A stretch of 55,335 nt of DNA from a virus (IMGVR_UViG_3300020042_002590:1-55335); one strand, 5' to 3'. Shown: positions 15,822-54,269, numbered from the stretch's first letter. Notes: generated from the letters alone by a model not told the origin. Numbers and translations: made by a program.

Positions 15822-15992
15822 ATGGGACTCTTTGAAAAAATCAAACAAATCTACCCCGAATTAACTTTGGAAGATTTTATTGCCCCAAACCAAACCATTT
15901 ACCTGCAAAACGACAGCGATGGCAAAGGTGATTACATTGCAAAGTGGGAACACCCAACATTGCCTAAACCCACAGAGGAGCAATTAGCATGA
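15822..15992 (+). CDS. 56-aa XkdW-like fibre-associated protein
   Basis: MGLFEKIKQIYPEL...LQNDSDGKGDYIAKWEHPTLPKPTEEQLA; abuts both neighbours. Confidence 0.65.
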   Translation: MGLFEKIKQIYPELTLEDFIAPNQTIYLQNDSDGKGDYIAKWEHPTLPKPTEEQLA

Positions 15993-17077
15993 CCATAGCA
16001 ATCTCAGGAACAACGGGTATTACCCTTACCGGGCAGTTTGATTCTGCCTCCACGTTTGGCTTCAAAAACCGCATCATCAATGGTTCAATGGTTGTCTCAC
16101 AAAGGAATGCGGGGGCTAGTGTTACACCTACAAGTAGTGCATATACATTAGATAGATGGTCGCTAACAATTACTCAAGCTAGTAAACTTTCTGCTCAACA
16201 AAATGCTGGTTCTGTAACGCCGCCAGTAGGATTCAAAAACTATTTAGGCGCAACATCACTTTCTGCATATTCTGTTTCAGCTTCAGATTATTTTTTACTT
16301 TATCAGGGAATTGAAGGATTTAATGTTGCTGATTTGCAATGGGGTACTGCTAATGCTAGAACTGTTACTTTGTCGTTTCAAGTCTATTCTTCATTAACTG
16401 GCACTTTTGGTGGTTCATTAGTAAATGCTGGTTTTAATAGAAGTTATCCTTTTACTTATACAGTTTCTTCTGCCAATACATGGACTAATATTTCAGTAAC
16501 TATTGCTGGCGATACATCAGGCACTTGGGCAACAGACAATACTCAAGGTATAAGACTTTACTTTGGTCTTGGTGTTGGGGCAACTAATAGCGGAACTGCT
16601 GGTGCATGGGCAGGGGCGCAATATCTTTCAGCCACAGGTGCAACATCAGTAGTCGGCACAAATGGAGCAACTTTCTACATCACAGGCGTACAGCTAGAAA
16701 AAGGCTCAACAGCAACGAGCTTTGATTACAGACCTTATGGGACTGAGCTTCAGCTTTGTCAACGCTATTTTGAAAAGTCATACAACACAGATGTAGCAGT
16801 AGCAACATCGACAGATACTGGCACAGTCTCTACAAGATCACCTCAAGCAGATATGCAAGACACAATCCAGTTTGCAGTTGAAAAAAGATCGGGGCCAGAT
16901 ATAGTTTATTACACAGGTTTGGGTGTAATCAATAATTGGAGAGATGTAAGTGCTGGCGCAAATAAATCAATGTCTACAGCGGTTACAGGGTCAAGACAGT
17001 TTACTTGGGCTAATTCAAGCAGTATGCCTGTTGGCAACGTATTGCGTGGTCATTGGACTGCATCAGTGGAGCTATAA
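15989..17077 (+). CDS. Tail-fibre/receptor-binding subunit (carbohydrate-binding-like)
   Basis: FKNRIING.M.VSQR...YTLDRW...ITGVQLEKGSTATSFDYRPYGTELQLCQRYF; AT-rich interior. Confidence 0.7.
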   Translation: MTIAISGTTGITLTGQFDSASTFGFKNRIINGSMVVSQRNAGASVTPTSSAYTLDRWSLTITQASKLSAQQNAGSVTPPVGFKNYLGATSLSAYSVSASDYFLLYQGIEGFNVADLQWGTANARTVTLSFQVYSSLTGTFGGSLVNAGFNRSYPFTYTVSSANTWTNISVTIAGDTSGTWATDNTQGIRLYFGLGVGATNSGTAGAWAGAQYLSATGATSVVGTNGATFYITGVQLEKGSTATSFDYRPYGTELQLCQRYFEKSYNTDVAVATSTDTGTVSTRSPQADMQDTIQFAVEKRSGPDIVYYTGLGVINNWRDVSAGANKSMSTAVTGSRQFTWANSSSMPVGNVLRGHWTASVEL

Positions 17078-17233
17078 ATGTATCAACTTTCAATATACCC
17101 AAACATGGTTCAGTGCTTAACAACATTTGCATGGATACCATTTGACCCAGCAAACACAAGTTACCAAGCCTACCTAGAGTGGCTTGCAGAGGGCAACACA
17201 CCACTTCCCGCAGATGAAGGAGAGCAACAATGA
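17078..17233 (+). CDS. 51-aa fibre-associated small protein
   Basis: IPFDPANTSYQAYLEWLAEGNTPLPADE. Confidence 0.65.
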   Translation: MYQLSIYPNMVQCLTTFAWIPFDPANTSYQAYLEWLAEGNTPLPADEGEQQ

Positions 17234-18264
17234 CTGTAACGATTAACGGCACAAGCGGCATAGCTGGAGTTGATGGCTCTGCTGGCACACCCGCAATTCA
17301 AGGCGCAGATACCAATACAGGTATGTTTTTTCCTGCCGCTGACACCATTGCTTTTGCCACGGCTGGTACTGAGGATATGCGGATTGACTCCTCTGGTAAT
17401 GTGGGGATTGGTACTGCTTCTCCAGCAAGCAAGTTGGACATAAATACAGGCGGCTCAACTGGCACACAAGACTTGATAACTCTGTCAGGTCTAGATAGTG
17501 CCTCGACAAAACAGACCTATGCCACTATTCGCATGGGTATTGAAAACAGCACTGCTGGCTCAGAACAAGGAAACTTGCATCTTCAAACAGTTGAATCTGG
17601 AACTGTTAGAGACAGAATTTTTATGAAGGGCGGGGGTGAAATTGCGTTTTTCAATGGCGGCTCAGAACGTATGCGTATCGACTCCAGCGGTAACTTGCTG
17701 GTGGGGACTACGGCTTTAAGAGGTTCTGAAAGAGTTTCAATCCAAGCGGCAAGCTCATCGCAAGGTTTAAATATTTCTCAATTTAGTACCTCTGGAAATC
17801 CAACCATATTTAAGATTGAAACAGGATTAGCTGGTGGCGCTATTGGAACTGGTCGCTTCATTGATACTTATGATGGAGGCTCAAACAAATTTTTTATTGC
17901 TGGTTCTGGTGTGGTTAATTCAACAAGCACCTCAATCACCTCCATTTCTGATTTTAGACTCAAAGAAAATATTCGCGATCTAGAAACAGGGCTTGATGCA
18001 GTAATGACTCTTAAGCCAAGGCGCTTTGATTGGAAAGAAGGTCAAGGCACTAACAAAAAAGATGTGGCTGGTTTTATTGCACAAGAAGTTGAAACTGTAT
18101 TGCCTGATTTAATTGGTGAATGGAAGAACAATGAAAGCGATGAGACCATATACAAATCGTTGTCGATGGGTGATATGTTGCCCACTCTTGTTAAAGCCAT
18201 CCAAGAACAACAAGCCATCATCACAGCCCTGACAGCACGAATCACTGCACTTGAGGCTAAATAA
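17230..18264 (+). CDS. Tail fibre with C-terminal intramolecular chaperone (peptidase S74-like)
   Basis: ERMRIDSSGN repeats; SDFRLKENI...LKPRRFDWK...GFIAQEVE...LVKAIQEQQ. Confidence 0.85.
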   Translation: MTVTINGTSGIAGVDGSAGTPAIQGADTNTGMFFPAADTIAFATAGTEDMRIDSSGNVGIGTASPASKLDINTGGSTGTQDLITLSGLDSASTKQTYATIRMGIENSTAGSEQGNLHLQTVESGTVRDRIFMKGGGEIAFFNGGSERMRIDSSGNLLVGTTALRGSERVSIQAASSSQGLNISQFSTSGNPTIFKIETGLAGGAIGTGRFIDTYDGGSNKFFIAGSGVVNSTSTSITSISDFRLKENIRDLETGLDAVMTLKPRRFDWKEGQGTNKKDVAGFIAQEVETVLPDLIGEWKNNESDETIYKSLSMGDMLPTLVKAIQEQQAIITALTARITALEAK

Positions 18265-21518: not shown

Positions 21519-21983
21519 ATGAACTTGTCTGCCAATTTTTCTTTAAAAGAATTAACAAGATCAGATATTGCCTTGCGCATGGGTTTGGACAACACCCCCG
21601 GTGAAAAAGAAATTGCAGCTTTGAGGCTCTTGGCGGAAAAGGTTCTTCAGCCTGTGCGCGACCATTTTGGCAGGCGTGTAACCGTAAATTCAGGGTTCCG
21701 CAGTATTGCTACAAATGTAGCCACGGGAGGCTCAAAGACCTCAGACCATGTCAAAGGACAAGCAGGCGATATAGAAATTGAAGGCATACCCAACGCAGAG
21801 CTTGCGCAATGGATCATGGATAACTTAGAATACACACAACTCATTCTTGAGTTCTACACTCCCGGCATACCTGACAGTGGCTGGGTGCATGTTTCGTATG
21901 ACCCAAACAACCTGAAAAAACAGGAGTTGACCGCTATGAAGGTCGCTGGTAAAACGCAATATGTTCCCGGCCTAGTAGCTTGA
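21519..21983 (+). CDS. Endolysin, peptidase M15A family
   Basis: LSANFSLKEL...VNSGFRS...SDHVKGQAGDI...WVHVSY zinc-peptidase motifs. Confidence 0.85.
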   Translation: MNLSANFSLKELTRSDIALRMGLDNTPGEKEIAALRLLAEKVLQPVRDHFGRRVTVNSGFRSIATNVATGGSKTSDHVKGQAGDIEIEGIPNAELAQWIMDNLEYTQLILEFYTPGIPDSGWVHVSYDPNNLKKQELTAMKVAGKTQYVPGLVA

Positions 21984-26821: not shown

Positions 26822-27229
26822 ATGCCTCTGCATCACGTTCACCCTAACCATCTTCCAGTCGTATGGCCTGTTGCTCTGCCCCTCCTCAAAAAAGCGATGG
26901 ACTTGGAGCCGGGGTCACACAACGAGCAGTTCATTGAGTACAGCATTCGCACAGGTAGGACGCATTTGTTGGTATGGGAAGAACCCAGTGAAGGCATAAC
27001 CGGTGCTTGCACGATTGAGTTCATTGACTACCCAATGGAGCGCATTGGGCATGTGAATTTGATGGGTGGTAAAGGAATTGTCAGGGACTACGTGTTTGAT
27101 GAAGCCAAAGAATTTATGCGGCTCAACGGTGCAAAGAAAGCCCAATGTTGGGCAAGAGGCTCTCTTGTTGAGATGTACAAGAAAATGGGTATGGAAAATA
27201 CCCACCAAGTAATGAGGATTGAATTATGA
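26822..27229 (+). CDS. GNAT-like protein in the ejection module
   Basis: 135 aa, HLLVWE...ITGACTIEFIDYP...VNLMGG...EMYKKMG; position like P22 gp14/T7 gp13. Confidence 0.5.
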   Translation: MPLHHVHPNHLPVVWPVALPLLKKAMDLEPGSHNEQFIEYSIRTGRTHLLVWEEPSEGITGACTIEFIDYPMERIGHVNLMGGKGIVRDYVFDEAKEFMRLNGAKKAQCWARGSLVEMYKKMGMENTHQVMRIEL

Positions 27230-29334
27230 AGCGCAGCTATTCTCGTCGTGAGTTATACGCATTGGGCGAACCGCTCGGTGATTCTGCGACCTACCGCAAG
27301 GCTGGTGGTTTAGTCCTTGGCGACGGCGGCGGTGGTGGTGGCGCTCCCCCTCCCCCTGATAAAACTACACAGACGGTAGAGCTTCCCGAATGGGCGCGTC
27401 CATACGCACAGAGTACCCTTGCTAAAGGCGCGGCGCTTACCGACATCAACCAAAACCCATACCAACAGTACGGCGGTAACCGTATTGCTGGGTTTACTCC
27501 AATGCAGATGCAGTCGTTCCAAGGCGCTGCAAACATGGACGCAGGCCCAAGAGGGTTTCAAGAGAATGTCGGCGGCTACATGTCCCCCTACATGCAGAAT
27601 GTGGTGGACGTTGAAAAGCGTGGGGCAATTCGTGACTATCAAATTGGTAACACCATGCAACAGGCGCAAGCCACACAGGCAGGTGCTTTTGGCGGCGGTC
27701 GTGAAGCTATCCAACGTGCAGAGCGTGAACGTGGTCTGATGGGAACTCTTGGCGGTATCCAAGCCAGAGGTGCGCAATCTGCGTTTGACCAAGCTTCAAA
27801 TCAGTTCCGCCAAGGCATTCAGCAAGGCGTAGCGGTCAATCAGTTGCAGAACCAATACGGCGGTCAAATGCAACAGCAAGCCCAGCGTCCGCTGGACATG
27901 GCGTATCAGGACTTCCTGAATCAACAGAACTACCCATACAAGCAGTTGGGCTTCATGTCTGACTTGGTGCGTGGTATGCCTTTGGGTCAGAAGTCTACAA
28001 GCACTGTGTATGAGGCCCCCGGCAGCACAATGGGTCAGCTTGCTGGCTTGGGTATGGGTGCGTATGGCTTGTCTCAAATGGGCATGAAGTTTGCCGATGG
28101 CGGTGAGATCATGGATGGCGAGTCTGTAGTTCGTTATGCAGATGGTGGTGTCACCAGCAGCCAAAACGTTGAAGGCATCCTTGAAAAACTGAGCGACCAA
28201 CAGTTACAGCAAGCAAAACAAACTGCTTTAGCTAGACGTGATGTTGAGCAAGCCAACATGATTGACGCAGAAATAGCACAACGGTCATCTATCCGCAGTG
28301 GTATTAGCGCAGCCATAACCCCTGAGTTTGCTGACCAGATGGAAGAGGGCATGGCTTCCGGCGGCATTGTTGCGTTTGCTGATCGCGGCGCAGTCGTTGA
28401 CAAAACCAAAAAGGGTATGCCAGCCGTTGTTGAGTCTGCTGTTTCTAAATTAGCAGCACAAACAGGTGAGCCTGAGCAAGACTTGAGAGCAGAGACCCAG
28501 AAGAACGTTGAGATGTTTAAACGTGATTACCAGCCTTTGCTTGACCAGATCAACAAGTCAGTTGAAGAAGCCAAGCCCGACAGTGAGGCAATTAAACAGC
28601 AGGGTTTGGGTCAGGCTCTGGCTCAGTTTGGTTTCAAGATGGCTGCTGCGGCAGCAAAACCTAAAGCTAGGTTCTTGGAAAGCGCATCAGCCGCCGCACC
28701 TGAGTTGGCAACAGCCGCCGCAAAGACACAAGACCTGATTGCGGCTCAACAGCAGAACTACAACAAGCTGAAGATGGATCAGACCAAGTACGAGGTTGCC
28801 CTGCAAAACGGCAACATGAAGGATGCCGCCATCTTGGCTGGTCAGATTCGCGCAGGTCGTCAAGCAGACAAACAACTTGCCGCAACAATGGCTCGTTACG
28901 AAGACCAGTTCAAAAACGAACAAGCACAGTTGGCTGTCCAGCGCCAACAAGTGGCTGCAACAGCAGGAAGACAGCCTGAAGATTTGCGTTCACTTGCTGC
29001 GGTACTGATGAAGAATGACCAATCCTTGACTATGTCCCAAGCTTTGGAACAAGCCTCAAAACTCAGATATGGTATGAGCGCCGATATTCGGAGTGATGCC
29101 TCGACCAAGGCGGCTTTGGCTAAAGAGTTGACGGATATTGACAAAGAGTTTCCGCCAATAACCTTGCAGGGCGACTCCAAGTTGGCGCAAAGAAGCAGGG
29201 CTGAGAGGCAGGATCGTATAAACAGGCTTTACGCAACCTATGGTATGTCACCGTCTGAAGGCGGCGCTGCGCAGGCAAGCCCAACCCAAACTCCATTAGC
29301 TCAAAAAGGGTTTAAACTTCTAGGCACGGAGTAA
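27226..29334 (+). CDS. Internal virion/ejection (DNA transfer) protein
   Basis: Gly run, LPEWARPY, YMSPYMQNVVD, AGAFGGGR, Gln-rich helices, several xxxGG motifs. Confidence 0.65.
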   Translation: MKRSYSRRELYALGEPLGDSATYRKAGGLVLGDGGGGGGAPPPPDKTTQTVELPEWARPYAQSTLAKGAALTDINQNPYQQYGGNRIAGFTPMQMQSFQGAANMDAGPRGFQENVGGYMSPYMQNVVDVEKRGAIRDYQIGNTMQQAQATQAGAFGGGREAIQRAERERGLMGTLGGIQARGAQSAFDQASNQFRQGIQQGVAVNQLQNQYGGQMQQQAQRPLDMAYQDFLNQQNYPYKQLGFMSDLVRGMPLGQKSTSTVYEAPGSTMGQLAGLGMGAYGLSQMGMKFADGGEIMDGESVVRYADGGVTSSQNVEGILEKLSDQQLQQAKQTALARRDVEQANMIDAEIAQRSSIRSGISAAITPEFADQMEEGMASGGIVAFADRGAVVDKTKKGMPAVVESAVSKLAAQTGEPEQDLRAETQKNVEMFKRDYQPLLDQINKSVEEAKPDSEAIKQQGLGQALAQFGFKMAAAAAKPKARFLESASAAAPELATAAAKTQDLIAAQQQNYNKLKMDQTKYEVALQNGNMKDAAILAGQIRAGRQADKQLAATMARYEDQFKNEQAQLAVQRQQVAATAGRQPEDLRSLAAVLMKNDQSLTMSQALEQASKLRYGMSADIRSDASTKAALAKELTDIDKEFPPITLQGDSKLAQRSRAERQDRINRLYATYGMSPSEGGAAQASPTQTPLAQKGFKLLGTE

Positions 29335-29336
29335 CC

Positions 29337-32300
29337 ATGCCAGTATACAAAGTCCAAGCGCCAGACGGTAAGGTATATCGCATTCAAGGGCCTGCGAACG
29401 CAAACCCTGAAGATTTGTTTGCCACAATTGCCGAACAAAACCCAATGGCGGCTAAAACAACCGCAGAACTGGAGTCGGCTAAATCTGCTCCTATGTCGAT
29501 TGGCGACACACTTAAGTCTCTTGGTAGCGGCGTTGTTGGCGGCGGCAAAAGCATTGTCGACTTCTTTGGCGCTGGCACTGACATATCCAAAGGTCTTGGT
29601 GAAGCGCAAAGCTACCTGCAAGAAAGCTTGTCACCAGAGCGCCAAGCAGAGATTGCCCGGCGACAGGAGTTGCAAGACCGAGCCGCCCGTTCGGGTAGCC
29701 TATTCCAAGAAGCCAAAGCGTTTATCGGTGGCGTTACTGAAGCTCCCATTCAATCCCTAGCGCAAGCCGCAGGATCGTCTGTGCCAGCTATTGTTGCTGG
29801 TATTGCAACTCTTCCCGCTTCAGCCCCTGCTGGTCTGGCGCTGGGCGTAGGAACCATAGCCAAGTTGGCTGTGGGCGCTATACAAGGCGTTGGCGAGATG
29901 AAGGGCGGCGTGTTTGATGCCGTCAAAGCCGAATACATGAAGCAGGGCAAGACTGAAAAAGAAGCTGAAGAGCTTGCCATCAAATCATCTGAGTATTCAA
30001 GAGAAATGGCTCTTCAAACTGGCGGGGCGGCTTTGCTTGGCGCATTAGATGCCGCCACAGGTGCTGAACCCGGCATTGCTAAGGCTATGCGCAAGGCATC
30101 TCCAACAGGTGCAATGACCAAAGAGGCTATTGACGCAGGCATTGGCGCATTGCCAGAAAAGGCCGTCAAAGCCCCCTCTTACCTCGGTCAGCTTGCCAAA
30201 GGCGTGGCGACAGAGGCCCCGCTTGAAGGCGCTCAAGGTGCATTTGGTCAGTATGGTGAGAATGTTGCACTGCAACCAACAGGCGCAGATGTAACCCCCA
30301 TGCAGGGTGTATTGGGTGCTGGCCTGCGAGATGCCACAGTTGGCGCTTTGTTTGGTGGTGCAGCCTCTCCGTTGGGTATGAGGTCTGCCCGTCAGGACTA
30401 CGCCACCGACCAATTCCTGCGTCAAGCCAAGGAAGATATTGAGCTTGATAAACGTGCGGCTGAATCTGAAAAGATTAAGAGTCAAGCTAGAGAGGGCTTG
30501 GGAGCAACTGGCAAACAGCTTCTCCTGCCTGCCCCCGGCAAGACCTACGAAGAGCCTAAAGACGTATTGCAAGATCCTGTCGGTCGCGTCACCGAAGACG
30601 AACTCGGCAAGGCAATTGGCAACAACACTGTCGTCAATTACCTGAACAAGTACCGCAAAGACAACAACCTGCCGAAACTGAAGTCCTACAGTATTGAGGA
30701 CATCAAAGACGCAATGACCGCCCAAAACCCAGAGGGCGAGGCTGGTGCTTTAAACAGTATTCTGGCGTATAAAACAGGATACAAGAACGAAACCTATACA
30801 CCAGAGGACATCAACAAGGTCGCTCTGGCAAAGAACGTTGCCACTGAAACCAAGGGATTTTCTGATTTCCTGACCCGGGCAACTGGCAAATCTGATTTAA
30901 ACACCATGACGCAGCCGGAGCTTCATTCGGCTTACAAGGCTTTAAATGCCCTGCCACGCGAAGGCACTGAGGCGCAACTTGTGCTGCCTGAAGGTTCTAA
31001 CGCCACACGGTTTACACAGGATCAATACAACCAAGGCGTAACCACTGCGCTGATGGGTGTGAAGCAGGGCAAGCCCGTCACCCTTGAGCAGGCTCGTAAT
31101 TCTGTCAAAGCGCAGACTGATCTCAAGACTGATCGTGACGCAGACCAAGTGCTTAGGACTGCCGCCTCAAACGAAGACTTGATCATCGAAAGAGGTACTG
31201 GCTTCCAAGCCAAAAACAAAGCTGGCGATGTTCTTGGCACATACGGAACTGAGGCAGAAGCCAAACGTAATCACCGCAGAGCCGACATTTCACCTGTTGA
31301 AACGCAAATTGTCCGTGCGCCAGAAGAGATAAAGACAGAAAAGACTGCACAACTCCCAGAAGGCTACGGCATTGAGAAGGTCGCAGAGGCTGGCGATGAG
31401 CGCCCTGCTGCCTATGTTGTACGAGCAGAAGGCTCACAAAAGAACGAATCGCAAACATTTGCTGAAGAGGTTGATGCTAAAGGTCGTTTAGCGTCGCTTA
31501 CCCGTGGACGCGAGGCAAATGCTAAGGCAAAAGAAGCTTCGGCTGACCGCATCCGCCAAGATCTTGAAAAAGAACAAGCCAAAATTGTTCAGATGGAAGC
31601 TGATGGCTTAACAGGTACATCAGAACATACAAAGGCTGTAAATGCGTTTAAAGCAGCAAACGTAACCAAGAGCGCACAGATTACCTCGCTTCTTGATGAG
31701 GCTGAGGCTTTCCGTGCGCCACTCAAGATTGTCCCGCTTGGAAAGAAAACAACCAAGGTAGAGAAGCATACGGTCACCAAGGGCGGCAAGAAGCTTGGCA
31801 CATTCCCCAATAAGACTGAAGCGGAAAAGAGCATCCTTGCTCAAGCAACTGACGCAGAACTCCAGACCATCGCTGATCGCGGCGGTGCATTTGGTAAACG
31901 CGCAGAGGTTGAGTTGGGTGAGCGTAAGCGCACCACCCCCGGCATCAAGGTCAAGGGAACTGCTGAAGGCTTAGAGAAGGCGGGTGTGCGCACCCCTGAA
32001 ACTGAAGCCAAGCTCAAGGAGTTGGAAGCCAAGTTGCTCCCGCTGCTGAAGAAGTTTGGCCTCGAACAAGTTGGTTTAAACGTTGTTCGGGCCATCGAAA
32101 ACAACGCAGAAGGCTCCTTCAAGGGTGCTGACAAGCTGATTCAAGTGGCGTTTGACGCCATCAACCCCATCAAGACCATGCGCCATGAGGCGCTACATGC
32201 CCTTAAAGAGCTTGGTTTCTTCACGCCCCAGCAGTGGAAGTCTTTGGAGAAGCAGGCCAAAGAGAAATGGATTGGCAAGTACCTTGAGAACGTCAAGTTT

Positions 32301-35300
32301 GATGCAGACACATCCCGTTTACAGGCGTACCGCAACCTTGGCCTGACCGAGGACGACATCATTGAAGAGGCAATTGCTGATGCCTTTGCTGACTTTGAGG
32401 CTGCTGGCAAAGCCCCGGCAGGTATGCTGGATGCACTGTTTAAACGCTTACAACAGTTCTTTAAGGCGCTGCGTCAGGCGTTAACCGGCGCAGGCTTTGA
32501 GTCTGCGGACGAGATCTTTGGCAAGATTGAGCGTGGAGAGTTGAAGGCCGGTAAGCAAGCTGGCGGCAAGGGAGAAAAGTTTAGTCTTGCGCCAGTGTCT
32601 TTAAACACTATCGCTGGCCCCGCGCTTAACGCCTACAAATCCGAATATCTTGATCCCATCAGTGAAGCGGTAGCCAAAGGAAACTCCAAACCAATAACAC
32701 TGAAAGACGGGACTCAGGTTAACTTGGTATTAGGCGCAGAAAAAACTGACGACACAAGAGGGGTGATTGCTGCCGTTGATCAAGAGGGCGATATTGTTGG
32801 TCGTCTTGTGTTTTACAAAAACGAAACTGAAGATGGTCGTAGGTTTGGGCCTGATGTCAACGTTAATCAAAATTTTCGTCGCAAGGGATTGGCTACAGCC
32901 ATGTACGACCTTGCGGAAGAAAATGGTGCGTTAATACCAGATTTAGAGCCAAGACAATTCCGCACCGATGAAGGCCAAGCATTCCGCGAGTCAAGAGAAA
33001 ACGCATGGAAGGCCAGCAAGCAAACAATAGAAGCCGCAGACAAGTACGAAGAAGAAAACGGTATCCGTCCATATGTGTCTGAGGGCTTCTTAGACTTGCC
33101 AACCGATGGCACAAAGTACTCTCTTCAGAAGTACAACCCTGAGAAGCATTTAAGCTTTGATGCGACGCTGGGCGTACCTATCAACAAAAACGGTTTGATC
33201 ACCCTTTACTACCACACGACCAAAGAGAATGCGGTCAAGATTGGCAACAAGAAGATCATCCCATCTGAAGGCCGTAACCGCATTTACCTGACCAACGAGT
33301 CAAACGGCGCAGATGTCTTACGCAACCGTGGAAACTTTGATCAAGAGTTTGACGGCAGCACTGTGTTGGTGTACGTCCATCCCGACATGCTTCAACTGGA
33401 TGATGTCCAAGACAATGGGCGCAGAGATTTCTTTATTCCGTTGGCGCAAGGAGACTTCTTCAACAAGAAGATGAAGCTCCAGTCCATCCAAAAATCACGC
33501 AAATCTGCGATTGTTGAGTCGTTTAGCTACAGCGACCACGAAATGCGGATTGCAGAAGCTGTTCAAAAGTACAAGGATGCAACTGCGGCAGAGCGCAAGA
33601 AGATGGTTGCCAGCGCCCGTAAGCTTTTGAAGCTTGAACATAACGTAGGCACGTTGCTGACTGAAAACGGCAAGCTGGAGAAGACTCGCGTTGGTGAGTA
33701 CGACTTGGACTGGGACGGCAACAGCGTTGCCTCTATGGGTCTTGGTCTTGCCTCTGCCCAGCAAATCTCTGAAAAGGTGTCTACCTGCCCCCGCTCAGGA
33801 ATCTGCGAAGGTTTGTGTTTGGGTGAAACATCTGGTGGTAACTTCATGTTTGGAGGAGCTGCATCTGAGGATGTGGGCGACATACAGAAGAGTTCATTCC
33901 GCGCCGCCGCAAGGATGATGCAGTACCTTAAAACAGAGGCGCTGGTCGTTCATCCCGAAGAGTTTGCAATGGTTCTTCAAGCTGAGATTGACTCACTGGC
34001 TAAATGGTGCGCATCTGAGACTCAGAACAAACGCGACCCAGAAACCAAGAAGAACGAGAAGATCGCCAAAGAGATCTATCAGCCTGCTGTGCGTTTAAAC
34101 GTTACATCTGATTTCAAACCAACAATGTTCCGGGCCATCATCGAAGCCAACCCGGACACAATGTTCTATGACTACACCAAGCTGGGTAGCGAGTCCATTG
34201 CGCCAAATCACCACTTAACCTATTCCTCAACCGGCTTTGGTCAGGTTGTAAACGGTGAAAAGGTGTTCTTCAAAGACAAGTCTGGCAAGTACGACCACAA
34301 CTGGGCCACCATGCGCTCACGTTTAAACAAGGGTCAGAACGTCGCAATGGCTTTTTCCAGCAAGTCTGGCATCCCATCGTTCTTGGTTGATGAAGAGACT
34401 GGCGAGAAGTATCGCGTGTGGAATGGCGATGATTACGATGCTCGCTTCCTTGACCCTAAACAGCCTGACGGCAAGGGTATGATCATTGGCCTGAAGAACA
34501 AGGCTGGTAACTTGAGCGAAAAGAACGCCACCGAAAAGACTGGCGGTTTCTTTGTTCAGTACGACCCCAAGACAGACGGCGACACAGTTGTTGTGCCTAA
34601 TCAAGCGCAGTTCAAAGGGTTGAAGGATATATCAGTCTCAACCGCCAAGTACAGCCTGCGCACTCCTGAAACCAAGGGGTTCAAAAACTGGGTTGGCAAA
34701 AACCCAATTATTCCTGCCGACGATACATCCAAATACAAGGGTGGCAGTGCTGTGTTCCAAGCATTTCACGGCACAACGTACAGCAACATTACTGTGTTTG
34801 ACCCAGAGCGAGGTAGCCAATTGGGCGCTCTTGGCGCTGGCCCATACTTCTCAACATCAGCCAAAGATGCAAGTGTTAATTACGCTGGCATCGGCCCTGA
34901 TTTGAAGTTGAGGATTGAGTTGCTTGCAGACAATTTAGAAGATGACTTTAATTACAACTTTGAAGACAGCAAACAAAGACTTCAAGAATATTTTGATGAC
35001 AACGACATAAAAGTTGACGTTAATGATCTTGACCCAAAAGCTGCAAAGTTTGAAGACAACTCTCCAGATAAATACTTTGAAAAAGCATCAAAGTATTTAG
35101 CCACCAAGCAACTCAAGGGCGACTCCGATGGGTTGGTTATGCCTGTTTATATCAAGTTGGAAAAACCATTTGATATGACAAGCAAGAAAATTGAGTTCAT
35201 GTATGACCCAGATTCAGAGGGTTCTGAAGTTGATGACTTTGGCAAATTAATTGACGAAGTAAAAGTTCTTGCAGATCAAATGCAAGTTGACCCCGCCAAG

Positions 35301-38300
35301 GCGCTGGATGCCATTTATGATAAGTCAGATGGCATGACCGCAAGAGAATTGCGCGATATCATTAAAGACAAAATATCACTGTATGACGATCCATACACTG
35401 GAGAGCCTTCAAGCTCTAACCAATTCATGCAGTATCTTGCAAGAGAACTTGGTTATGACGGCATCATTCAAGATGCCTCGGATGAGTACTACACAATGGT
35501 TGGCGTTGAGAGATCAAGAGATCCCAGCGCAAACAGAACATTCCATATCATGCCGTTTACACCGCAGCAGGTTAAATCTGAGACGGGTAACTCTGGCGCA
35601 TTTGATCCAACAAACAAAGATATCCGCTATAGCCTCAAAACATTCTTCCCCACCGCAGAAGCTGCTGAGAAAGCTGCGTACAAGAAAGCTCCGCCCGGAA
35701 CGGCAGAGTTTAAACGCTTCTTTGGCGGCAGCAAGGTCATGGAAGAAGGCCGTGCGCAACCTATGTTCCACGCCAGCATGGAAGACTTCAACATCTTCCG
35801 TGAGAACAGGCCAATCTTTGTCTCTCCTGACGCAGGCTTTGCCGAAGACTTCATCAAGCGCAGAATATCCGAGTCCGGCTCATTGAGCTATCTGAGTGAA
35901 GGTCAAGTCAAGAAGAAGACCGCAAAGATCTATCCTTTGTGGGTTCGTGCAGAAACTCCGTTTGATTACGACAACGACGAGCATATCCAGCAGATTGTTG
36001 GGTACTTACAAGCCAACAATCAAGTAACTGGCGGTCGCGTTCAAATGGCTGGATTGGGCTTAATGACCCCCGAAGAAATTACAAAGGGATTGAGTCAAGG
36101 TAAATGGACTGTTATTGAGGATGGCAAGACACAAGAAGCATTGAAGGCGCTTGGTTTTGATTCTTTCTACACCAGCGAGGGTGGAGCAAAGAACCTTGCG
36201 GTGTTTAAAGCCAACCAGCTCAAATCCATTACTGGAAACCTTGGTGGCTTTGATGAGAGTGGCGACATCCGCTACAGCTTAAAGAATTCTGCGTTCCATT
36301 CTGGCGATCTTGGTTATGGCGGAGATACCACCCTTGGTCGGATTGACGGCAGTAGAAGCACTGGGCATTTTGGTACAGGCGTTTACTTTGTCAGTGGAGT
36401 AGATAAGCTGGGGCTTGATAATAGGTTCTCTGGACGCTCTGACCGCCCAGTCCATCAGGTTGATTTGTCTCCATATAAACTTGCCGAGCCGCTCACTAAT
36501 TACCACGCAGAACTTTTACATGATGGTTTGAGGATCGTCAATGGCTTGGTTGGCAATAGAAGCGGGTCACGCGAAGAGATAGAAGAATATTTAAACGAAG
36601 CCACAAGGAAAATCAAGTCTGGCTTAAGCTTAAAAGAATCAGATCCTGAAATCAAAAAAATCATCTTGAGTGCTGTTAAAACAGCCAAAAGAAACAAGAC
36701 AGACGAGGTCATCCATACAAGCAAATATCTAGACTCTGCGTCCACTATGGTTATCAAGGGTCTTGGATTTGATGGCATTGATGTTCGCCGCTTAGACAAG
36801 TTTGACAATACAAAGTACGGCACTGTTGTATACCGTGAGTCACTCCCAGCCGCTGATGCTGCGTCTCAAAAATACAGCTTAAAGCCAGTCAGCGCAGACA
36901 TTGATGCCGCCATCGACAGAACCACGACAGCCCGTGAAGAGCAGGGCTTTATCGGTCGCATCCTTGAGGCAATTTTCCCCAAGTCTGCCGGTCACTTCCG
37001 TCAACAAGCTTTAAACAGATACAACCAGCTTGGTGTCTATGACAAGATGTTGGCTGAGAAGATGGGTGGAGCGGCTCTCCTTGCCGATGCAAGCGCAGAA
37101 TCTGCGGCTCTCATGTCTGATCTGTCTGCGTCTGTAACTGCCTCTGCGTTTGGATATGGCAACCGTACCGGCGGCGTACCTGTTTACAAGAATGGCTTGA
37201 CCACCATCGACACGTCCGTCAAAGGCCCAATTGCCATCCTTGCCCCGCTGGCTAGGTACAACAACCCTCGCATCTATCAACGCTACCAATTCTGGGCTGG
37301 CGTTAAGCGCGGTAAGCGCTTCATGGCTGACGGCAAAGAGAAGAACTTTGAGCAGGCAGACATTGCCCGTGCCGCGCAGTTAGAAAAAGAACATCCTGAG
37401 TTTGTTCAGATCCAAAAGGAAATGAACGAGTTCAACAATGGGTTGGTCAAGTACATGGTGCAGACAGGTGTGCTTGATCCTGCAAGAGGTCAGATATACA
37501 TGCAGCACGCAGACTACATCCCCTTCTATCGTCAGATGGATGGCGAGCGCACCATTGGCCCTAACATCTTTCAATCAATCTCAGGTGTTAGACCACCCAA
37601 GGCATTAAAGGGTAGCGAGGCTCCTGTTGCTGACTACTTGGAAACCATTGTCCGCAACACCCAGTCAGCCATACAGTCAGGCATGAAGAACGTTGCCGCA
37701 CAAAGAGCGGTTGGTGTTGCTGAAAAGATTGGCTTGGCGCAGCGTTTAAACACACAGGATTCAGGCCCAGACACCGTGCAGGTTATGGAGAAGGGTGTTC
37801 GCGTCTCTTACCGCGTGGCTGACCCGTTGTTTATCGATGCCTGCCGCAGTTTAAACCTGCCTGACTTACCATTTATGGGTCTTCTGGCTGCTCCTGCCGA
37901 CATTTTGCGCAACTTGGTGACCAAAGATCCCGGCTTTATGTTGGCAAACATGATGCGTGACTCCCTGTCTTCATGGGTTACCAGCGGGGCAAACGTAACA
38001 CCCCTCATAGGAACGATGTCCGGCTTTGCAAAAGCTTTGTCCGGCAAGTCCGCAAGCATGGAGGCTCTTTTAAACGCAGGTATTCTGGGAGGTTATGAGT
38101 TCTCCTCCGGTGTGCTGAAGAGCGGAGAGGTGCTGGCTGCGGACATGAACAAGAAGTACGGCAAGGCGACCGGAGCCAAGGTTCTTCTCAAGCCGTTTAC
38201 ATCGTTGTGGGATGCGTTGGAAAAAGGTACTGAGGCATCTGATGCCGCAACCCGTATTGCAATCTATGAGCGAGTCTTGGCTGACACAGGCAATGAGGCG

Positions 38301-39404
38301 GAGGCAATCTTCCGTTCCTTGGAGGTGATGAACTTTAACCGCAAGGGAAGCTCAGCCATTATCCGTATCGCAACCGCAGCCATCCCCTTCTTGAATGCAC
38401 GTATGCAGGGTCTGGATATCTTCTACAGGACTGCGTTTGGTCGTGACACTGATGCCAATGCCGCCTTAAAACAGAAAGCCTTCTTCGTGCGCGGTGCGAC
38501 CTTGATGGCTATCTCTGTGGCGCTGTTTACTATGGTCTCTGATGACGAGGAATACAAGAAGCAGGAAGAGGAAACCAAGGACAACTACTGGATCATTCCG
38601 GGCGTTGGCAAGTTCCCCATTCCCTTTGAGGTTGGATTCCTGTTTAAAACAGTTCCAGAGCGCATTTATGCGGCTATGTTTGGAGATGACACCGGCGAGG
38701 ATCTGAAAGAATCCATGAAGCGCGGCATCACCAGCACATTGGCGTTCAACCCCATGCCGCAAACGTTTAAACCTATTGCCGAGGCTCTGGTTAACTACAA
38801 CTCCTTTACTGGACGGGTCATTGTCGGGGCTGGTATGGAAGGCAGAGCGCCCGAGTTCCAAGTTGGGCCAAGCACATCAGAGGTTGCTCAAAGGCTGGGA
38901 TCTGCGCTGGGCTTGTCTCCCCTCAAGGTTGACCATGTATTGCAGGGCTACACAGGAACAATCGGTATGTACCTTGTTCAGGTGACTGACTCTGTGCTGA
39001 CTGCCAACGACAACTCTCCTAACGCCTCTAAGAGGTTTGAGCAGTTGCCAATCATCAAGAGGTTTGCAGTTGACCCCGAGGCTCGTGGCAACATCACGCA
39101 GTTCTATGCCCTGAAGAACGCGACCGATCAGGCTGTGACAACCCTCAACTTCCTTGAAAGATCTGGTGACGCAGAAGCCTACGCCAAGTACTTTGAGGAC
39201 AACGCAGGGATTCTTGCAAACAAGAACTATGTCCAAAGCATAGAAAAGCAGATGAAGAAGTACCGCGAGATGAGGTCTATGGTTCAGTCAGCAGAGATGA
39301 CCGGCGACGAGAAGCGGGATCTATTGATAGATATTGGCAGGGCAGAGAACGCCTTGAATGAAAACATCAAGGAAGTTAAAAAGATAATCAAAGAAGTCCA
39401 ATAA
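29337..39404 (+). CDS. Giant polyvalent virion protein (3355 aa): zincin metallopeptidase, GNAT, ADP-ribosyltransferase-like cassettes, Gp88-like domain, C-terminal LPD38-like region
   Basis: RHEALH (aa 949-954) plus EEAIAD; FRRKGLATAMY; FHGT..GPYFS; MFHAS..IFVS; TCPRSGICEGLCLG; KDNYWIIP..PIPFEVG..SPLKVDHVLQGYTG. Confidence 0.85.
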   Translation: MPVYKVQAPDGKVYRIQGPANANPEDLFATIAEQNPMAAKTTAELESAKSAPMSIGDTLKSLGSGVVGGGKSIVDFFGAGTDISKGLGEAQSYLQESLSPERQAEIARRQELQDRAARSGSLFQEAKAFIGGVTEAPIQSLAQAAGSSVPAIVAGIATLPASAPAGLALGVGTIAKLAVGAIQGVGEMKGGVFDAVKAEYMKQGKTEKEAEELAIKSSEYSREMALQTGGAALLGALDAATGAEPGIAKAMRKASPTGAMTKEAIDAGIGALPEKAVKAPSYLGQLAKGVATEAPLEGAQGAFGQYGENVALQPTGADVTPMQGVLGAGLRDATVGALFGGAASPLGMRSARQDYATDQFLRQAKEDIELDKRAAESEKIKSQAREGLGATGKQLLLPAPGKTYEEPKDVLQDPVGRVTEDELGKAIGNNTVVNYLNKYRKDNNLPKLKSYSIEDIKDAMTAQNPEGEAGALNSILAYKTGYKNETYTPEDINKVALAKNVATETKGFSDFLTRATGKSDLNTMTQPELHSAYKALNALPREGTEAQLVLPEGSNATRFTQDQYNQGVTTALMGVKQGKPVTLEQARNSVKAQTDLKTDRDADQVLRTAASNEDLIIERGTGFQAKNKAGDVLGTYGTEAEAKRNHRRADISPVETQIVRAPEEIKTEKTAQLPEGYGIEKVAEAGDERPAAYVVRAEGSQKNESQTFAEEVDAKGRLASLTRGREANAKAKEASADRIRQDLEKEQAKIVQMEADGLTGTSEHTKAVNAFKAANVTKSAQITSLLDEAEAFRAPLKIVPLGKKTTKVEKHTVTKGGKKLGTFPNKTEAEKSILAQATDAELQTIADRGGAFGKRAEVELGERKRTTPGIKVKGTAEGLEKAGVRTPETEAKLKELEAKLLPLLKKFGLEQVGLNVVRAIENNAEGSFKGADKLIQVAFDAINPIKTMRHEALHALKELGFFTPQQWKSLEKQAKEKWIGKYLENVKFDADTSRLQAYRNLGLTEDDIIEEAIADAFADFEAAGKAPAGMLDALFKRLQQFFKALRQALTGAGFESADEIFGKIERGELKAGKQAGGKGEKFSLAPVSLNTIAGPALNAYKSEYLDPISEAVAKGNSKPITLKDGTQVNLVLGAEKTDDTRGVIAAVDQEGDIVGRLVFYKNETEDGRRFGPDVNVNQNFRRKGLATAMYDLAEENGALIPDLEPRQFRTDEGQAFRESRENAWKASKQTIEAADKYEEENGIRPYVSEGFLDLPTDGTKYSLQKYNPEKHLSFDATLGVPINKNGLITLYYHTTKENAVKIGNKKIIPSEGRNRIYLTNESNGADVLRNRGNFDQEFDGSTVLVYVHPDMLQLDDVQDNGRRDFFIPLAQGDFFNKKMKLQSIQKSRKSAIVESFSYSDHEMRIAEAVQKYKDATAAERKKMVASARKLLKLEHNVGTLLTENGKLEKTRVGEYDLDWDGNSVASMGLGLASAQQISEKVSTCPRSGICEGLCLGETSGGNFMFGGAASEDVGDIQKSSFRAAARMMQYLKTEALVVHPEEFAMVLQAEIDSLAKWCASETQNKRDPETKKNEKIAKEIYQPAVRLNVTSDFKPTMFRAIIEANPDTMFYDYTKLGSESIAPNHHLTYSSTGFGQVVNGEKVFFKDKSGKYDHNWATMRSRLNKGQNVAMAFSSKSGIPSFLVDEETGEKYRVWNGDDYDARFLDPKQPDGKGMIIGLKNKAGNLSEKNATEKTGGFFVQYDPKTDGDTVVVPNQAQFKGLKDISVSTAKYSLRTPETKGFKNWVGKNPIIPADDTSKYKGGSAVFQAFHGTTYSNITVFDPERGSQLGALGAGPYFSTSAKDASVNYAGIGPDLKLRIELLADNLEDDFNYNFEDSKQRLQEYFDDNDIKVDVNDLDPKAAKFEDNSPDKYFEKASKYLATKQLKGDSDGLVMPVYIKLEKPFDMTSKKIEFMYDPDSEGSEVDDFGKLIDEVKVLADQMQVDPAKALDAIYDKSDGMTARELRDIIKDKISLYDDPYTGEPSSSNQFMQYLARELGYDGIIQDASDEYYTMVGVERSRDPSANRTFHIMPFTPQQVKSETGNSGAFDPTNKDIRYSLKTFFPTAEAAEKAAYKKAPPGTAEFKRFFGGSKVMEEGRAQPMFHASMEDFNIFRENRPIFVSPDAGFAEDFIKRRISESGSLSYLSEGQVKKKTAKIYPLWVRAETPFDYDNDEHIQQIVGYLQANNQVTGGRVQMAGLGLMTPEEITKGLSQGKWTVIEDGKTQEALKALGFDSFYTSEGGAKNLAVFKANQLKSITGNLGGFDESGDIRYSLKNSAFHSGDLGYGGDTTLGRIDGSRSTGHFGTGVYFVSGVDKLGLDNRFSGRSDRPVHQVDLSPYKLAEPLTNYHAELLHDGLRIVNGLVGNRSGSREEIEEYLNEATRKIKSGLSLKESDPEIKKIILSAVKTAKRNKTDEVIHTSKYLDSASTMVIKGLGFDGIDVRRLDKFDNTKYGTVVYRESLPAADAASQKYSLKPVSADIDAAIDRTTTAREEQGFIGRILEAIFPKSAGHFRQQALNRYNQLGVYDKMLAEKMGGAALLADASAESAALMSDLSASVTASAFGYGNRTGGVPVYKNGLTTIDTSVKGPIAILAPLARYNNPRIYQRYQFWAGVKRGKRFMADGKEKNFEQADIARAAQLEKEHPEFVQIQKEMNEFNNGLVKYMVQTGVLDPARGQIYMQHADYIPFYRQMDGERTIGPNIFQSISGVRPPKALKGSEAPVADYLETIVRNTQSAIQSGMKNVAAQRAVGVAEKIGLAQRLNTQDSGPDTVQVMEKGVRVSYRVADPLFIDACRSLNLPDLPFMGLLAAPADILRNLVTKDPGFMLANMMRDSLSSWVTSGANVTPLIGTMSGFAKALSGKSASMEALLNAGILGGYEFSSGVLKSGEVLAADMNKKYGKATGAKVLLKPFTSLWDALEKGTEASDAATRIAIYERVLADTGNEAEAIFRSLEVMNFNRKGSSAIIRIATAAIPFLNARMQGLDIFYRTAFGRDTDANAALKQKAFFVRGATLMAISVALFTMVSDDEEYKKQEEETKDNYWIIPGVGKFPIPFEVGFLFKTVPERIYAAMFGDDTGEDLKESMKRGITSTLAFNPMPQTFKPIAEALVNYNSFTGRVIVGAGMEGRAPEFQVGPSTSEVAQRLGSALGLSPLKVDHVLQGYTGTIGMYLVQVTDSVLTANDNSPNASKRFEQLPIIKRFAVDPEARGNITQFYALKNATDQAVTTLNFLERSGDAEAYAKYFEDNAGILANKNYVQSIEKQMKKYREMRSMVQSAEMTGDEKRDLLIDIGRAENALNENIKEVKKIIKEVQ

Positions 39405-51121: not shown

Positions 51122-52768
51122 TTATGCGGCTAGTTTGATTTGTTTAAATGATGCAGTACCGAGGTCTGCAATGCTCTTCACGTGTACGTTGTTTGAGTAA
51201 ACATCGCTCACGTTGTACTGGATACCGACCCCGATAGTCGTGATTCCAAGGCGCTCACCCACTTGCGCCTGATGCTTGGCGGCGGCTTTGTGACCATCGC
51301 CATCGGTGATAACGAACATCACCTTGCGCTCTTCATGCCTTTGCAAAAGCAGACCGTGCCCGTAGCGGATTGCAAAGTAATCATTCGACCCGCCACCTGC
51401 CTCAATACGCACCAGCAAGTCATTAACCTTTTTGTGATTCATGTCGAAAGGTTTCAGCACGGCGGTGCTATCGCCAAAGGTCAGCACACAAGTGGCTACA
51501 CCAGCACGGTTCAGCGTGTCCAGCAGGGCGGCAGTGGTCTGAATGGCGGCAGTCATGCGCTCGGCATCGGGGTTGCCATAGTCCCTAAACATAGACCCTG
51601 AAATGTCCAGTGCGATAACCACTGCACTGTCGATGCCCTCGGTCTCTTGCCTGCGTTTAAACAGGCGCTCACCGCCCATCGCCACATTGGGTAAGGCGTG
51701 GACATTGATTGACCCTGCCTTGCGGTTGCGTTGAAATTCAGACAAGCCTGAGTTTTCAAACAGGCGCTTGACCTCATAGCGTAACTTGGCGGGGACAGTG
51801 GGCAGGATGGTGAATCGACCATCGGGGCGGCTATTTATATCCGCATGGTTAGTCGCCTCGGTCAAGCCTGATCCCTCGCAATACCCGCCCGAACCGCCAC
51901 TCTCATCAGGCGCTTGGTTGGTAGGCTCGACCTCGACAGGCTCGGAGTGCTCATCAGGCGCAGAGGCTTTGCCTACGCCATCGCCATCGACCGCCTCACC
52001 GCCCTTACCCTCACCCTCGCCCTCTGCATCGCCGTCAGAGGCGCTCTCACCCTCGCCCTGACCCTCACCCTCACCCTCGCCGTCTTTGCCCTCTTCCTGA
52101 CCATCCTGATCGGTCTCAGACCCATCGCCTTGGTCATCGCCTTGGTCATCTTGCTGGTCATCATCTAAGTGCTGGAGTTGATCCATCATCCACTTTGCGA
52201 CTCGCAGGGTATCGGTGCTGGATGAGCAATCATCAATCATCAGCGATGCCTTGTAAAAGATCGACTGCAAGCCCGTTGCAAGCGGTACACGCTTGGCATA
52301 GCGGCGACCATAGGCGGCAAAGACAAAAGGATATTGCAAGGGGTCAGCCCAATCGATCTTTGCCTCAAAAGCCTTGTCGATCATGTTGTTGATCACATTG
52401 GCAAGCAATGCTTCAATGTTGCCTGTCAATTTGACATTGATGGCGGTGCGCTCAATCCAAACATCCTCGACTGCATTGTGAAGCTTGGCAAGGTAACGTG
52501 TATCGCCACGCACGTTGAAGTCAGTGTATTTGCGGTGCAGTAGTTCATGCACCACGTACCCGCAATAGTCTTCAAACACCGCACGACTCACCACTGCATC
52601 ATCAGCAATGTCAGCCAACTGGATCACGCCACGCCCATTGATACAGGCGGTTTGAACACCGACTGACCAATAGAGGGATACTGGTTTCAAGCCAAGAAAC
52701 TTGCAGACCTTGTGGCAAAGGGAAGTGACCCCCGCCCGTACCTCATAGCCTTTGTAAAATGCTTTCAT
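51122..52768 (-). CDS. CobT-like protein: N-terminal HExxH domain, acidic linker, vWA domain
   Basis: YVVHELLH...NAVEDVWIE; D/E/G-rich linker; MIDAS LDISGSM; ITDG. Confidence 0.8.
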   Translation of the reverse strand: MKAFYKGYEVRAGVTSLCHKVCKFLGLKPVSLYWSVGVQTACINGRGVIQLADIADDAVVSRAVFEDYCGYVVHELLHRKYTDFNVRGDTRYLAKLHNAVEDVWIERTAINVKLTGNIEALLANVINNMIDKAFEAKIDWADPLQYPFVFAAYGRRYAKRVPLATGLQSIFYKASLMIDDCSSSTDTLRVAKWMMDQLQHLDDDQQDDQGDDQGDGSETDQDGQEEGKDGEGEGEGQGEGESASDGDAEGEGEGKGGEAVDGDGVGKASAPDEHSEPVEVEPTNQAPDESGGSGGYCEGSGLTEATNHADINSRPDGRFTILPTVPAKLRYEVKRLFENSGLSEFQRNRKAGSINVHALPNVAMGGERLFKRRQETEGIDSAVVIALDISGSMFRDYGNPDAERMTAAIQTTAALLDTLNRAGVATCVLTFGDSTAVLKPFDMNHKKVNDLLVRIEAGGGSNDYFAIRYGHGLLLQRHEERKVMFVITDGDGHKAAAKHQAQVGERLGITTIGVGIQYNVSDVYSNNVHVKSIADLGTASFKQIKLAA

Positions 52769-52783
52769 GTTTAAACGCTCCTT

Positions 52784-54256: not shown

Positions 54257-54269
54257 GGTTTCTTTCGGA

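Follow-up and report, generated by a model that had tools for sequence, protein, structure and literature searches.

The phage contig IMGVR_UViG_3300020042_002590, a 55.3-kb stretch that we analyzed over its full length of 55,335 nucleotides (nt) and refer to as the window, contains a giant open reading frame (ORF; P0001) encoding a polyvalent protein of 3355 amino acids (aa), and within this protein the four-residue pattern [KR][YF]SL occurs in exactly six copies, at aa 1081, 1260, 1771, 2097, 2312, and 2512. Based on sequence comparisons of the giant protein with its metagenomic relatives, we conclude that the six copies represent a conserved inter-module junction motif, which in this clade has the form [KR]-[Y/F/L/M]-S-L-[R/K]. 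We also propose, tentatively and with a confidence that falls somewhat short of even, that the motif is a processing site read by a zincin-like domain of the same protein, acting either in cis or between copies. The protein carries GNAT, GP88, two ART-PolyVal, and LPD38 domains in a single phage ORF, and it has the characteristics of a polyvalent protein, including the presence of an LPD domain. Its features, with nt coordinates in the window and strand, are as follows.

29337..39404, +, giant ORF (P0001), 3355 aa, LPD38-type polyvalent protein
29337..31943, +, N-terminal part, aa 1-869; no Pfam family and no motif copy
32031..32561, +, zincin-like HExxH...EE domain, aa ~899-1075, mostly helical in the structure model
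32184..32198, +, HEALH, aa 950
32364..32381, +, EEAIAD, aa 1010-1015, candidate third metal ligand helix
32577..32588, +, junction motif 1, KFSL, aa 1081; 91 ends of high-scoring segment pairs (HSPs) in aa 1060-1099
32589..33113, +, cassette 1, GNAT acetyltransferase-like; in 24-29 of 119 homologues by HSP coverage
33114..33125, +, junction motif 2, KYSL, aa 1260; S1262 invariant in 41 sequences
33126..34646, +, cassette 2, beta-rich N-terminal half plus Cys-rich GP88 (aa 1458-1634)
34647..34658, +, junction motif 3, KYSL, aa 1771
34659..35624, +, cassette 3, ART-PolyVal split by an acidic insert (two Pfam stretches)
35625..35636, +, junction motif 4, RYSL, aa 2097
35637..36269, +, cassette 4, ART-PolyVal, 76 bits
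36270..36281, +, junction motif 5, RYSL, aa 2312
36282..36869, +, cassette 5, no family; C-terminal half helical in the structure model
36870..36881, +, junction motif 6, KYSL, aa 2512
36882..39401, +, C-terminal scaffold, common with giant proteins of isolated phages
38544-39056, +, LPD38, aa 3070-3240, E 4.4e-37

Motif copies and modules of the giant protein

An earlier note, written from the DNA sequence alone, had reported a 3355-aa ORF with a HEALH sequence, an EEAIAD sequence downstream of it, and six motif copies, and each of these was found exactly where the note had placed it. A pattern scan of the protein also bears out the statement that the motif does not occur in the scaffold at either end: the N-terminal and C-terminal parts contain zero copies, and there is no [YF]SL tripeptide in the giant protein beyond the six. 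When the protein was shuffled, the mean number of copies was 0.146 and the maximum was 2, and six copies were reached in 0 of 5000 shuffles. We scanned the window for the strict motif in all stop-to-stop frames of at least 60 aa on both strands and found only two further occurrences, one at nt 3200, in a frame that by coordinate arithmetic differs from that of the long ORF 2869-3831 overlapping it, and one at nt 31823, on the minus strand across from the giant ORF. No gene of the window apart from the giant ORF contains the strict motif. At the DNA level, copies 5 and 6 have TACAGCTTAAAG in common, the 12 identical nt that had been pointed out in the note, and this is the longest stretch shared by any of the six copies.

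A Pfam scan of the whole protein detects only LPD38, ART-PolyVal, GP88, a weak GNAT, and one chance-level match. The cassettes had previously been labeled as GNAT-like, Cys-rich Gp88-like, and, in four instances, ART-like, followed by an LPD38-like C terminus, and these labels stand except for two of the ART-like ones. Cassette 1, when scanned alone, scores 23.7 bits against a GNAT cut-off of 20.7, and the 921-residue structure model that includes it has weak Foldseek matches to GNAT structures in the PDB (best E, 4.1e-03). The Gp88-like label agrees with Pfam, as does the LPD38-like C terminus (aa 3070-3240), and both the ART-like cassette with the acidic insert (cassette 3) and cassette 4 are ART-PolyVal in Pfam; the two are related to one another with an hhalign probability of 98.8%. 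The beta-rich half of cassette 2 has no ART hit in Pfam at E values up to 10 and an hhalign probability of 3.2% against cassette 4. Likewise, cassette 5 has no ART hit in Pfam at E values up to 10, and its hhalign probability against cassette 4 is 14.7%, a value obtained with a thin profile of 2 homologues. In tblastn searches with the ART cassette, no match was found in plasmids and a single weak match was found in phages.

Two parts of cassette 2 have distinctive sequence features. The beta-rich domain (aa 1264-1455; 33126-33700) has the conserved sequences "YYHTT," "RxYLTNES," and "DFFIP" and is always found N-terminal of the GP88 module. In the GP88 module itself (33708-34238), C1484, C1490, and C1494 are invariant in 41 sequences, within "...STCPRSxICEGLCLGETSGGN...," and this module is the most widely kept of the cargo cassettes, being present in 115 of 119 homologues.

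The locations of the motif copies were compared with two AlphaFold2 models built from homologue alignments, one of aa 870-1790 (mean predicted local distance difference test [pLDDT] score, 73.0) and one of aa 2085-2640 (mean pLDDT, 59.3). Copies 1, 2, and 3 are in or at the end of stretches with pLDDT <50 (model residues 198-214, 381-395, and 893-921); copy 1 is at the end of the low-pLDDT stretch aa 1067-1083 and copy 2 is within aa 1250-1264. Copies 4, 5, and 6 are in or at the edge of such stretches in the second model (residues 1-15, 218-301, and 395-453), although copies 3 and 4 are near the ends of the modeled fragments and the first half of cassette 5 is also unmodeled. The presence of copies inside folded domains had been named in the earlier note as an observation that would speak against it, and none of the six is inside a confidently folded domain in these models. 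As modeled, the copies sit in flexible, linker-like, accessible stretches.

The motif in homologous giant proteins

A search with aa 900-2600 of the giant protein identified 373 proteins at E values up to 0.001, and we examined the best 120 of these, with the query included. Every one of them is a giant metagenomic protein with patchy similarity to the query and a mosaic of cargo. Of the 120, 117 have the strict motif and 98 have at least two copies of it. Together with the shuffling results, this refutes the idea that six copies of a four-residue pattern have simply arisen by chance in a long protein, the likelihood of which is practically nil. With a relaxed form of the motif, [KR][YFLMW]S[LIVM], there are 516 instances in the 120 proteins, which is 4.3 per protein, compared with 0.79 in shuffled proteins. 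These instances represent 441 distinct contexts, in which the residue before Ser is Y in 46%, L in 24%, F in 22%, and M in 6%, the residue after Ser is L in 85%, and the residue following that one is R or K in 71%. More distant relatives have S-L-[RK] as their conserved core, and the residue that precedes Ser differs between clades.

The breakpoints of homology between these proteins coincide with the motif. In the window protein, for which 119 homologues gave 475 BLAST segments, segment starts and ends are concentrated at copies 1, 3, 4, 5, and 6, while copy 2 lies within a block that is kept in 115 of the 119 homologues and whose upstream edge is ~40-60 aa before the copy. The earlier claim that each copy falls at a domain boundary is thus supported by HSP pile-ups for copies 1 and 3 to 6 and by low pLDDT for all six, with copy 2 being inside the conserved block. 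In an all-versus-all comparison of the 120 proteins, 23.6% of 65153 internal HSP endpoints are within 5 aa of a motif, compared with 2.0% of random positions, and at 398 of the 516 relaxed-motif instances there are at least 5 homology breakpoints within 15 aa. We also divided 259 proteins wherever the motif or one of its two variants occurs and retained cassettes of 60-900 aa. The resulting 704 motif-to-motif cassettes form 58 sequence families, 28 of which have at least two members; these families include ART (314 cassettes), the GP88 module (124 cassettes), and many that have no Pfam match. The proposal had been that the motif should track boundaries in homologues with different cargo, and the breakpoints and the cassette families indicate that it does. 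A separate search for shorter homologues returned 52 proteins, most of which have LPD38; these were taken to be fragments of the giant-protein family and were not used in the counts.

The sequence upstream of the motif depends on the module that precedes or follows it. After ART it is "...TGNxGxFDxxNxDI-RYSL," before the GP88 module it is "...LDLPTxxx-KYSL," and after the HExxH domain it is "...GELKAGKxxxxx-KxSL." Because these contexts differ by module type, the motif cannot be regarded as the tail of a single domain family. We considered an origin of the copies by simple duplication of ART tails and rejected it, since the motif is found C-terminal of the HExxH domain, the GNAT region, GP88, and other cassettes as well. 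In 29 proteins, the HExxH domain itself has a motif copy on either side; the window protein has no motif N-terminal of this domain. In the clade of P0168, P0181, P0190, and P0157, a "KK-SLR" junction is also found N-terminal of the HExxH domain, and judging from this arrangement the putative peptidase of these proteins is itself a motif-delimited cassette.

In order to distinguish constraint on the peptide from constraint on the DNA, we surveyed codon usage at 294 relaxed copies in the longest ORFs of 80 related viral contigs (L013-L092). AGY codons specify the motif Ser in 240 of the 294 copies (82%), compared with 32% AGY at other serines of the same ORFs. This excess may reflect common descent of many junctions or a preference at the DNA level, and common descent is plausible because AGY and TCN codons cannot interconvert by a single synonymous step. 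The AGY excess, the location of homology breakpoints on the motif, and the 12 nt shared by copies 5 and 6 are all in line with the motif being a by-product of cassette shuffling, that is, a junction that was inherited or kept as microhomology and has no role in the protein. Against this, the 294 copies comprise 180 distinct 12-nt versions, all six of the six Leu codons are used in near background proportions, Ser is encoded by TCN in 54 of the 294 copies, and both AGY and TCN are used in 39 of 63 loci that have at least two copies. This variety indicates that the constraint is on the peptide and is not that of a DNA homology patch. Ser and Leu are kept while their codons drift, which argues for selection on the peptide, and the maximum sharing of 12 nt was judged too short and too variable for homologous exchange. 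We therefore regard a shuffling by-product as quite improbable. The suggestion in the earlier note that the motif may also act as a crossover point for cassette swapping is weakly supported on the same grounds: the breakpoints on the motif speak for it, and the variety of the 12-nt versions, which points to peptide constraint, speaks against it.

The HExxH...EE domain and candidate processing at the motif

The domain upstream of copy 1 has the sequence characteristics of a zincin-like peptidase. In an alignment of 41 sequences, H950, E951, H954, E1010, E1011, and D1015 are invariant; an intact HExxH sequence is found in 256 of 259 proteins, as is the EE pair in 262 of 265 domain copies. In the 3 proteins without HExxH, this part of the domain is missing from the alignment, and we read them as truncated at the N terminus. 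A full-library search with aa 870-1085 gave 1806 cluster representatives at E values up to 0.001, and the best 150 of these are almost all giant proteins. In the AlphaFold2 model, pLDDT is 80-94 over aa ~940-1040, and the HExxH and EE sequences are both on predicted helices. We were unable to assign the domain to any described peptidase family, and the term "zincin-like" refers to the conserved motif pair and the predicted helices.

The domain and the motif tend to occur together and at a consistent spacing. In most of 113 proteins measured, the first relaxed motif is 131-200 aa after HExxH. Counting three motif variants in 238 domain-bearing proteins of at least 1500 aa, we found 992 copies compared with 257.7 expected. 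In 43 of 49 proteins, the ART tail and the post-domain junction agree in the class of the residue before Ser, a count that ignores phylogeny and uses noisy regular expressions. In contrast, 11 giant proteins of isolated phages, which have only the C-terminal scaffold in common with the window protein (23-29% identity) and carry other cargo without the HExxH domain, show no enrichment: they have 4 variant-motif matches compared with 10.0 expected. These 11 proteins are from Escherichia, Aeromonas, Planktothrix, Vibrio, Achromobacter, Bacillus, Thalassomonas, Shewanella, and Pelagibacter phages and one uncultured podovirus. Taken together with the domain-bearing proteins that have no motif, described below, these comparisons suggest that the domain and the motif are mostly, not strictly, coupled.

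In the giant protein, an N-terminal part with a hydrophobic stretch is followed by the HExxH...EE domain, then by variable cassettes that each end in the motif, and finally by the C-terminal scaffold, and cutting at the motif would free the cargo (GNAT, two ART-PolyVal, the GP88 module, and one further cassette) from both scaffold ends. For a zincin that selects the residue after the scissile bond, a cut on the N-terminal side of the hydrophobic residue would fit, as would one between Ser and Leu. That the motif is cut, and by which enzyme, at which bond, and when ("after ejection"), is inferred. A complex prediction for the domain with Zn and a 34-aa linker peptide (aa 2083-2116) gave a score of 0.00; it was made without controls and has no weight either way. 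Release of this kind has been proposed for polyvalent proteins in general by Iyer, Burroughs, Anand, de Souza, and Aravind (2017; PMC5512222), who suggest autoproteolytic release by zincin-like domains before packaging, in the head, or after injection.

Several observations weigh against cleavage by the protein's own domain. Some of these concern the identity of the domain as a peptidase. The zincin core as described in PMC5512222 includes, ahead of the HExxH helix, a three-stranded sheet with an N-terminal helix, and in our model the stretch before the HExxH helix (aa ~906-929) has pLDDT <50 and the three-stranded sheet is not confidently modeled. Pfam gives no credible hit for the HExxH domain at E values up to 10, Foldseek with the 921-residue model finds no match for it in the PDB, a PDB profile search with the domain alignment returned only chance coiled-coil matches, and a language-model search gave leads only, namely, LPD23 in 18-20% of nearest-cluster members, plus LPD1 and MuF_C. 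The low pLDDT at the motif copies may also stem from shallow alignments, especially for cassette 5. Other observations concern the coupling of the domain to the motif. Ruegeria phage 45A6, which among 50,697 phage records is the only isolated phage with the HExxH domain, has the domain (37% identity) but no junction motif, and P0123 has four copies of the domain and zero relaxed motifs. A relaxed motif is missing from 31 of 139 further representatives, many of which have xKSLR, KPSLR, or DIRKSLR at the same junctions, and all three variants are missing from 7 of 239 proteins. Common descent also confounds the joint distribution of motif and domain, and there is no natural "dead-peptidase" member of the family. 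Finally, N4 virion RNA polymerase, ArdC, and TraC1 are delivered uncut despite having such domains (PMC5512222).

The metagenomic protein P0123 (4460 aa) has an organization unlike that of the rest of the domain family, with each of its four HExxH domain copies (31% identity) followed by a near-identical stretch.

The precedents of full-length delivery (N4 virion RNA polymerase, ArdC, and TraC1) are compatible with the motif being a linker signal that is never cut and that instead serves in partner binding, capsid packing of a 370-kDa protein, tail threading, chaperone docking, or modification of the Ser. The motif is conserved, located in linkers, and independent of the cargo, as such a signal would be, and the preprint on phage phi24B (bioRxiv 10.64898/2026.04.10.717836) presents gp47, an LPD38 protein, as abundant in virions and, in the text available, mentions no processing and does not address its size on gels. 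However, scaffold homologues of like size and modularity do without the motif, which indicates that it does not meet a general need of such proteins, and no partner has been identified. The presence of the motif on both sides of the zincin-like domain in some proteins also fits release of the module better than it fits packing. On balance, we consider an uncut signal rather unlikely.

The motif could alternatively be a processing site for another protease, either a host enzyme acting after ejection or a phage assembly protease, with the zincin-like domain having some other task, such as an attack on the cell wall or on proteins of the host. Being short, conserved, and located in the linkers at every joint, the motif has the features of a cleavage site whichever enzyme reads it, and it is missing in some domain-bearing proteins. 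Effector roles for such domains are listed in PMC5512222, and a cell-wall role is suggested for the metallopeptidase domain of gp47 in the phi24B preprint. Among ~40 window ORFs scanned, no prohead protease was recognized with PHROGs or Pfam, although some capsid-module ORFs, several of which have no assigned function, are without annotation and leave room for one; a 320-aa capsid-module protein gave a weak lead to scaffolding proteins only. The only other peptidase family in these ORFs is an M15 cell-wall enzyme, which means that the window already has an enzyme for the wall. A phage-wide maturation protease would be likelier to have sites in other virion proteins, and the strict motif is in no other gene of the window. 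Nor is the motif enriched in the multi-domain scaffold homologues that do not have the HExxH domain. For these reasons, processing by another protease seems to us distinctly unlikely.

An extension of the proposed self-cleavage is that the motif is a cut site and also a built-in timer, with injected enzymes being freed on entry and then cleared by the host N-degron pathway. If the zincin prefers a hydrophobic residue after the scissile bond, cuts before Y/F/L/M or before Leu would give released enzymes that start with Tyr, Phe, or Leu (the Leu of the second case being followed by Arg or Lys), and Tyr, Phe, and Leu N termini are recognized by bacterial ClpS/ClpAP for rapid degradation. The residue frequencies at the motif are compatible with such cuts. 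We attach very little probability to this extension. Two further mechanisms were considered and rejected. A 2A-type translational skipping signal was ruled out because the motif has no resemblance to the 2A sequence. Self-cleavage through the Ser hydroxyl, as in proteins of the Nup98/SEA type, was ruled out because the motif is in linkers and not in a bond-straining fold, and also because Lys, Pro, or Ala precedes Ser in some clades.

Relation to known systems and setting of the giant ORF

Polyvalent proteins, as described in PMC5512222, are phage or plasmid polypeptides with two to fifteen effector-type domains each, and the giant protein resembles them in having ART-PolyVal, GNAT, LPD38, and an HExxH domain with a downstream Glu in one polypeptide. 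It differs in that its HExxH domain matches no Pfam model at E values up to 10, the polyvalent-protein peptidase models included. In the main text of PMC5512222, the word "linker" occurs 0 times and "cleavage site" occurs only in the title of a reference, and its abstract and section on peptidases define no site; the supplementary alignments could hold this clade. The published literature that we searched, supplements aside, describes no cleavage-site or linker motif of this kind. The theme of polyvalent proteins is known, and the junction motif is the new element.

Polyvalent proteins are widespread in phages and conjugative elements, and their self-cutting has been proposed since 2017 without a defined site. 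The giant protein provides a defined candidate, a five-residue motif found across hundreds of proteins of uncultured phages and edging at least 58 cargo families. The motif travels with one strictly conserved HExxH domain, and the defined site makes the general proposal of self-cutting testable. It also serves as a practical rule for splitting giant proteins into their functional units, of which the majority belong to no known family. Should cleavage take place, the giant protein would be a phage counterpart of effector-train toxins.

One such toxin is MARTX, a secreted bacterial toxin in which an inositol-phosphate-activated cysteine protease cuts after Leu. Like MARTX, the giant protein has an effector train between conserved ends, short conserved linker sites, and an in-cis protease, a role that is here proposed for the zincin-like domain. 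Neither a MARTX cysteine protease domain nor MARTX repeat regions were detected in the whole-protein Pfam scan, and the comparison with MARTX made in the earlier note is apt as an analogy of logic and does not extend to the protease itself. In the same way, the giant protein has a conserved site at every junction and predicted accessible linkers, as self-processing polyproteins do, with cleavage in this case being proposed.

Packaged enzymes are also trimmed in other phages. T4 Alt and internal proteins, as well as the ejection proteins of phiKZ-like phages and SPN3US, are cut by a prohead protease at short consensus sites. The giant protein, in the state we envisage for it, would resemble these as a packaged and injected protein with enzymes that include an ADP-ribosyltransferase. 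In the T4 and phiKZ type of processing, a separate prohead protease trims capsid proteins as well, whereas none was recognized in the scanned ORFs of the window and the motif is confined to one protein. Phage P1 DdrB is virion associated, has a C-terminal zincin-like domain, and is proteolytically processed (PMC5512222). As described there, DdrB has a different architecture and undergoes a single processing event before packaging, while the giant protein has a repeated junction motif.

Some very large podovirus proteins are counterparts by size and C-terminal domain. The phi24B preprint reports by proteomics that gp47 is abundant in virions and proposes that it is an ejection protein, and the paper on phage JC1 (PMC9144972) lists LPD38 in a "DarB-like" giant protein with Bcep22 gp75 as its counterpart. 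Like the giant protein, these have a C-terminal LPD38, which is the only Pfam domain family they have in common with it, and the available text of these sources describes no processing data or junction motif. Phages phi24B and Bcep22 are not among the best 40 of 51 tblastn records for the C-terminal scaffold. A megablast search with the giant ORF gave no match in the 50,697 isolated phage records.

The giant ORF is directly 3' of a series of virion structural protein genes that includes a 702-aa ejection-like protein, and the replication and recombination genes are on the far side of the contig. The neighboring and structural genes of the window are as follows.

51-2255, portal-like protein
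5172-6083, HK97-type major capsid protein
15989-18264, tail-fibre proteins
21519-21983, +, Peptidase_M15_3 cell-wall peptidase, E 3.9e-19
26822-27229, ORF preceding 27226-29334
27226-29334, 702-aa protein with a weak PHROG match to "DNA ejection protein"

The giant ORF appears to be in the position that internal or ejection proteins occupy in podoviruses, and based on the gene position and the relatives of the giant protein, we infer that it is packaged and ejected. A Kyte-Doolittle scan identified two hydrophobic stretches, an Ala/Gly-rich one at aa 141-185 (nt 29757-29891) and a second at aa 3047-3068 (nt 38475-38540), just N-terminal of LPD38. Both conserved ends of the protein thus have such a stretch, which would fit membrane insertion by an ejection protein.

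The M15_3 gene is within the structural module, directly 5' of the gene for a 786-aa virion structural protein, with no recognizable lysis cassette alongside it, and its product may be a virion-associated wall hydrolase. On the minus strand at 51122-54316 are two adjacent large genes with PHROG matches to a CobT-like/VWA protein (548 aa) and to a CobS/porphyrin-biosynthesis-type AAA ATPase (510 aa), a gene pair that is frequent in marine phages.

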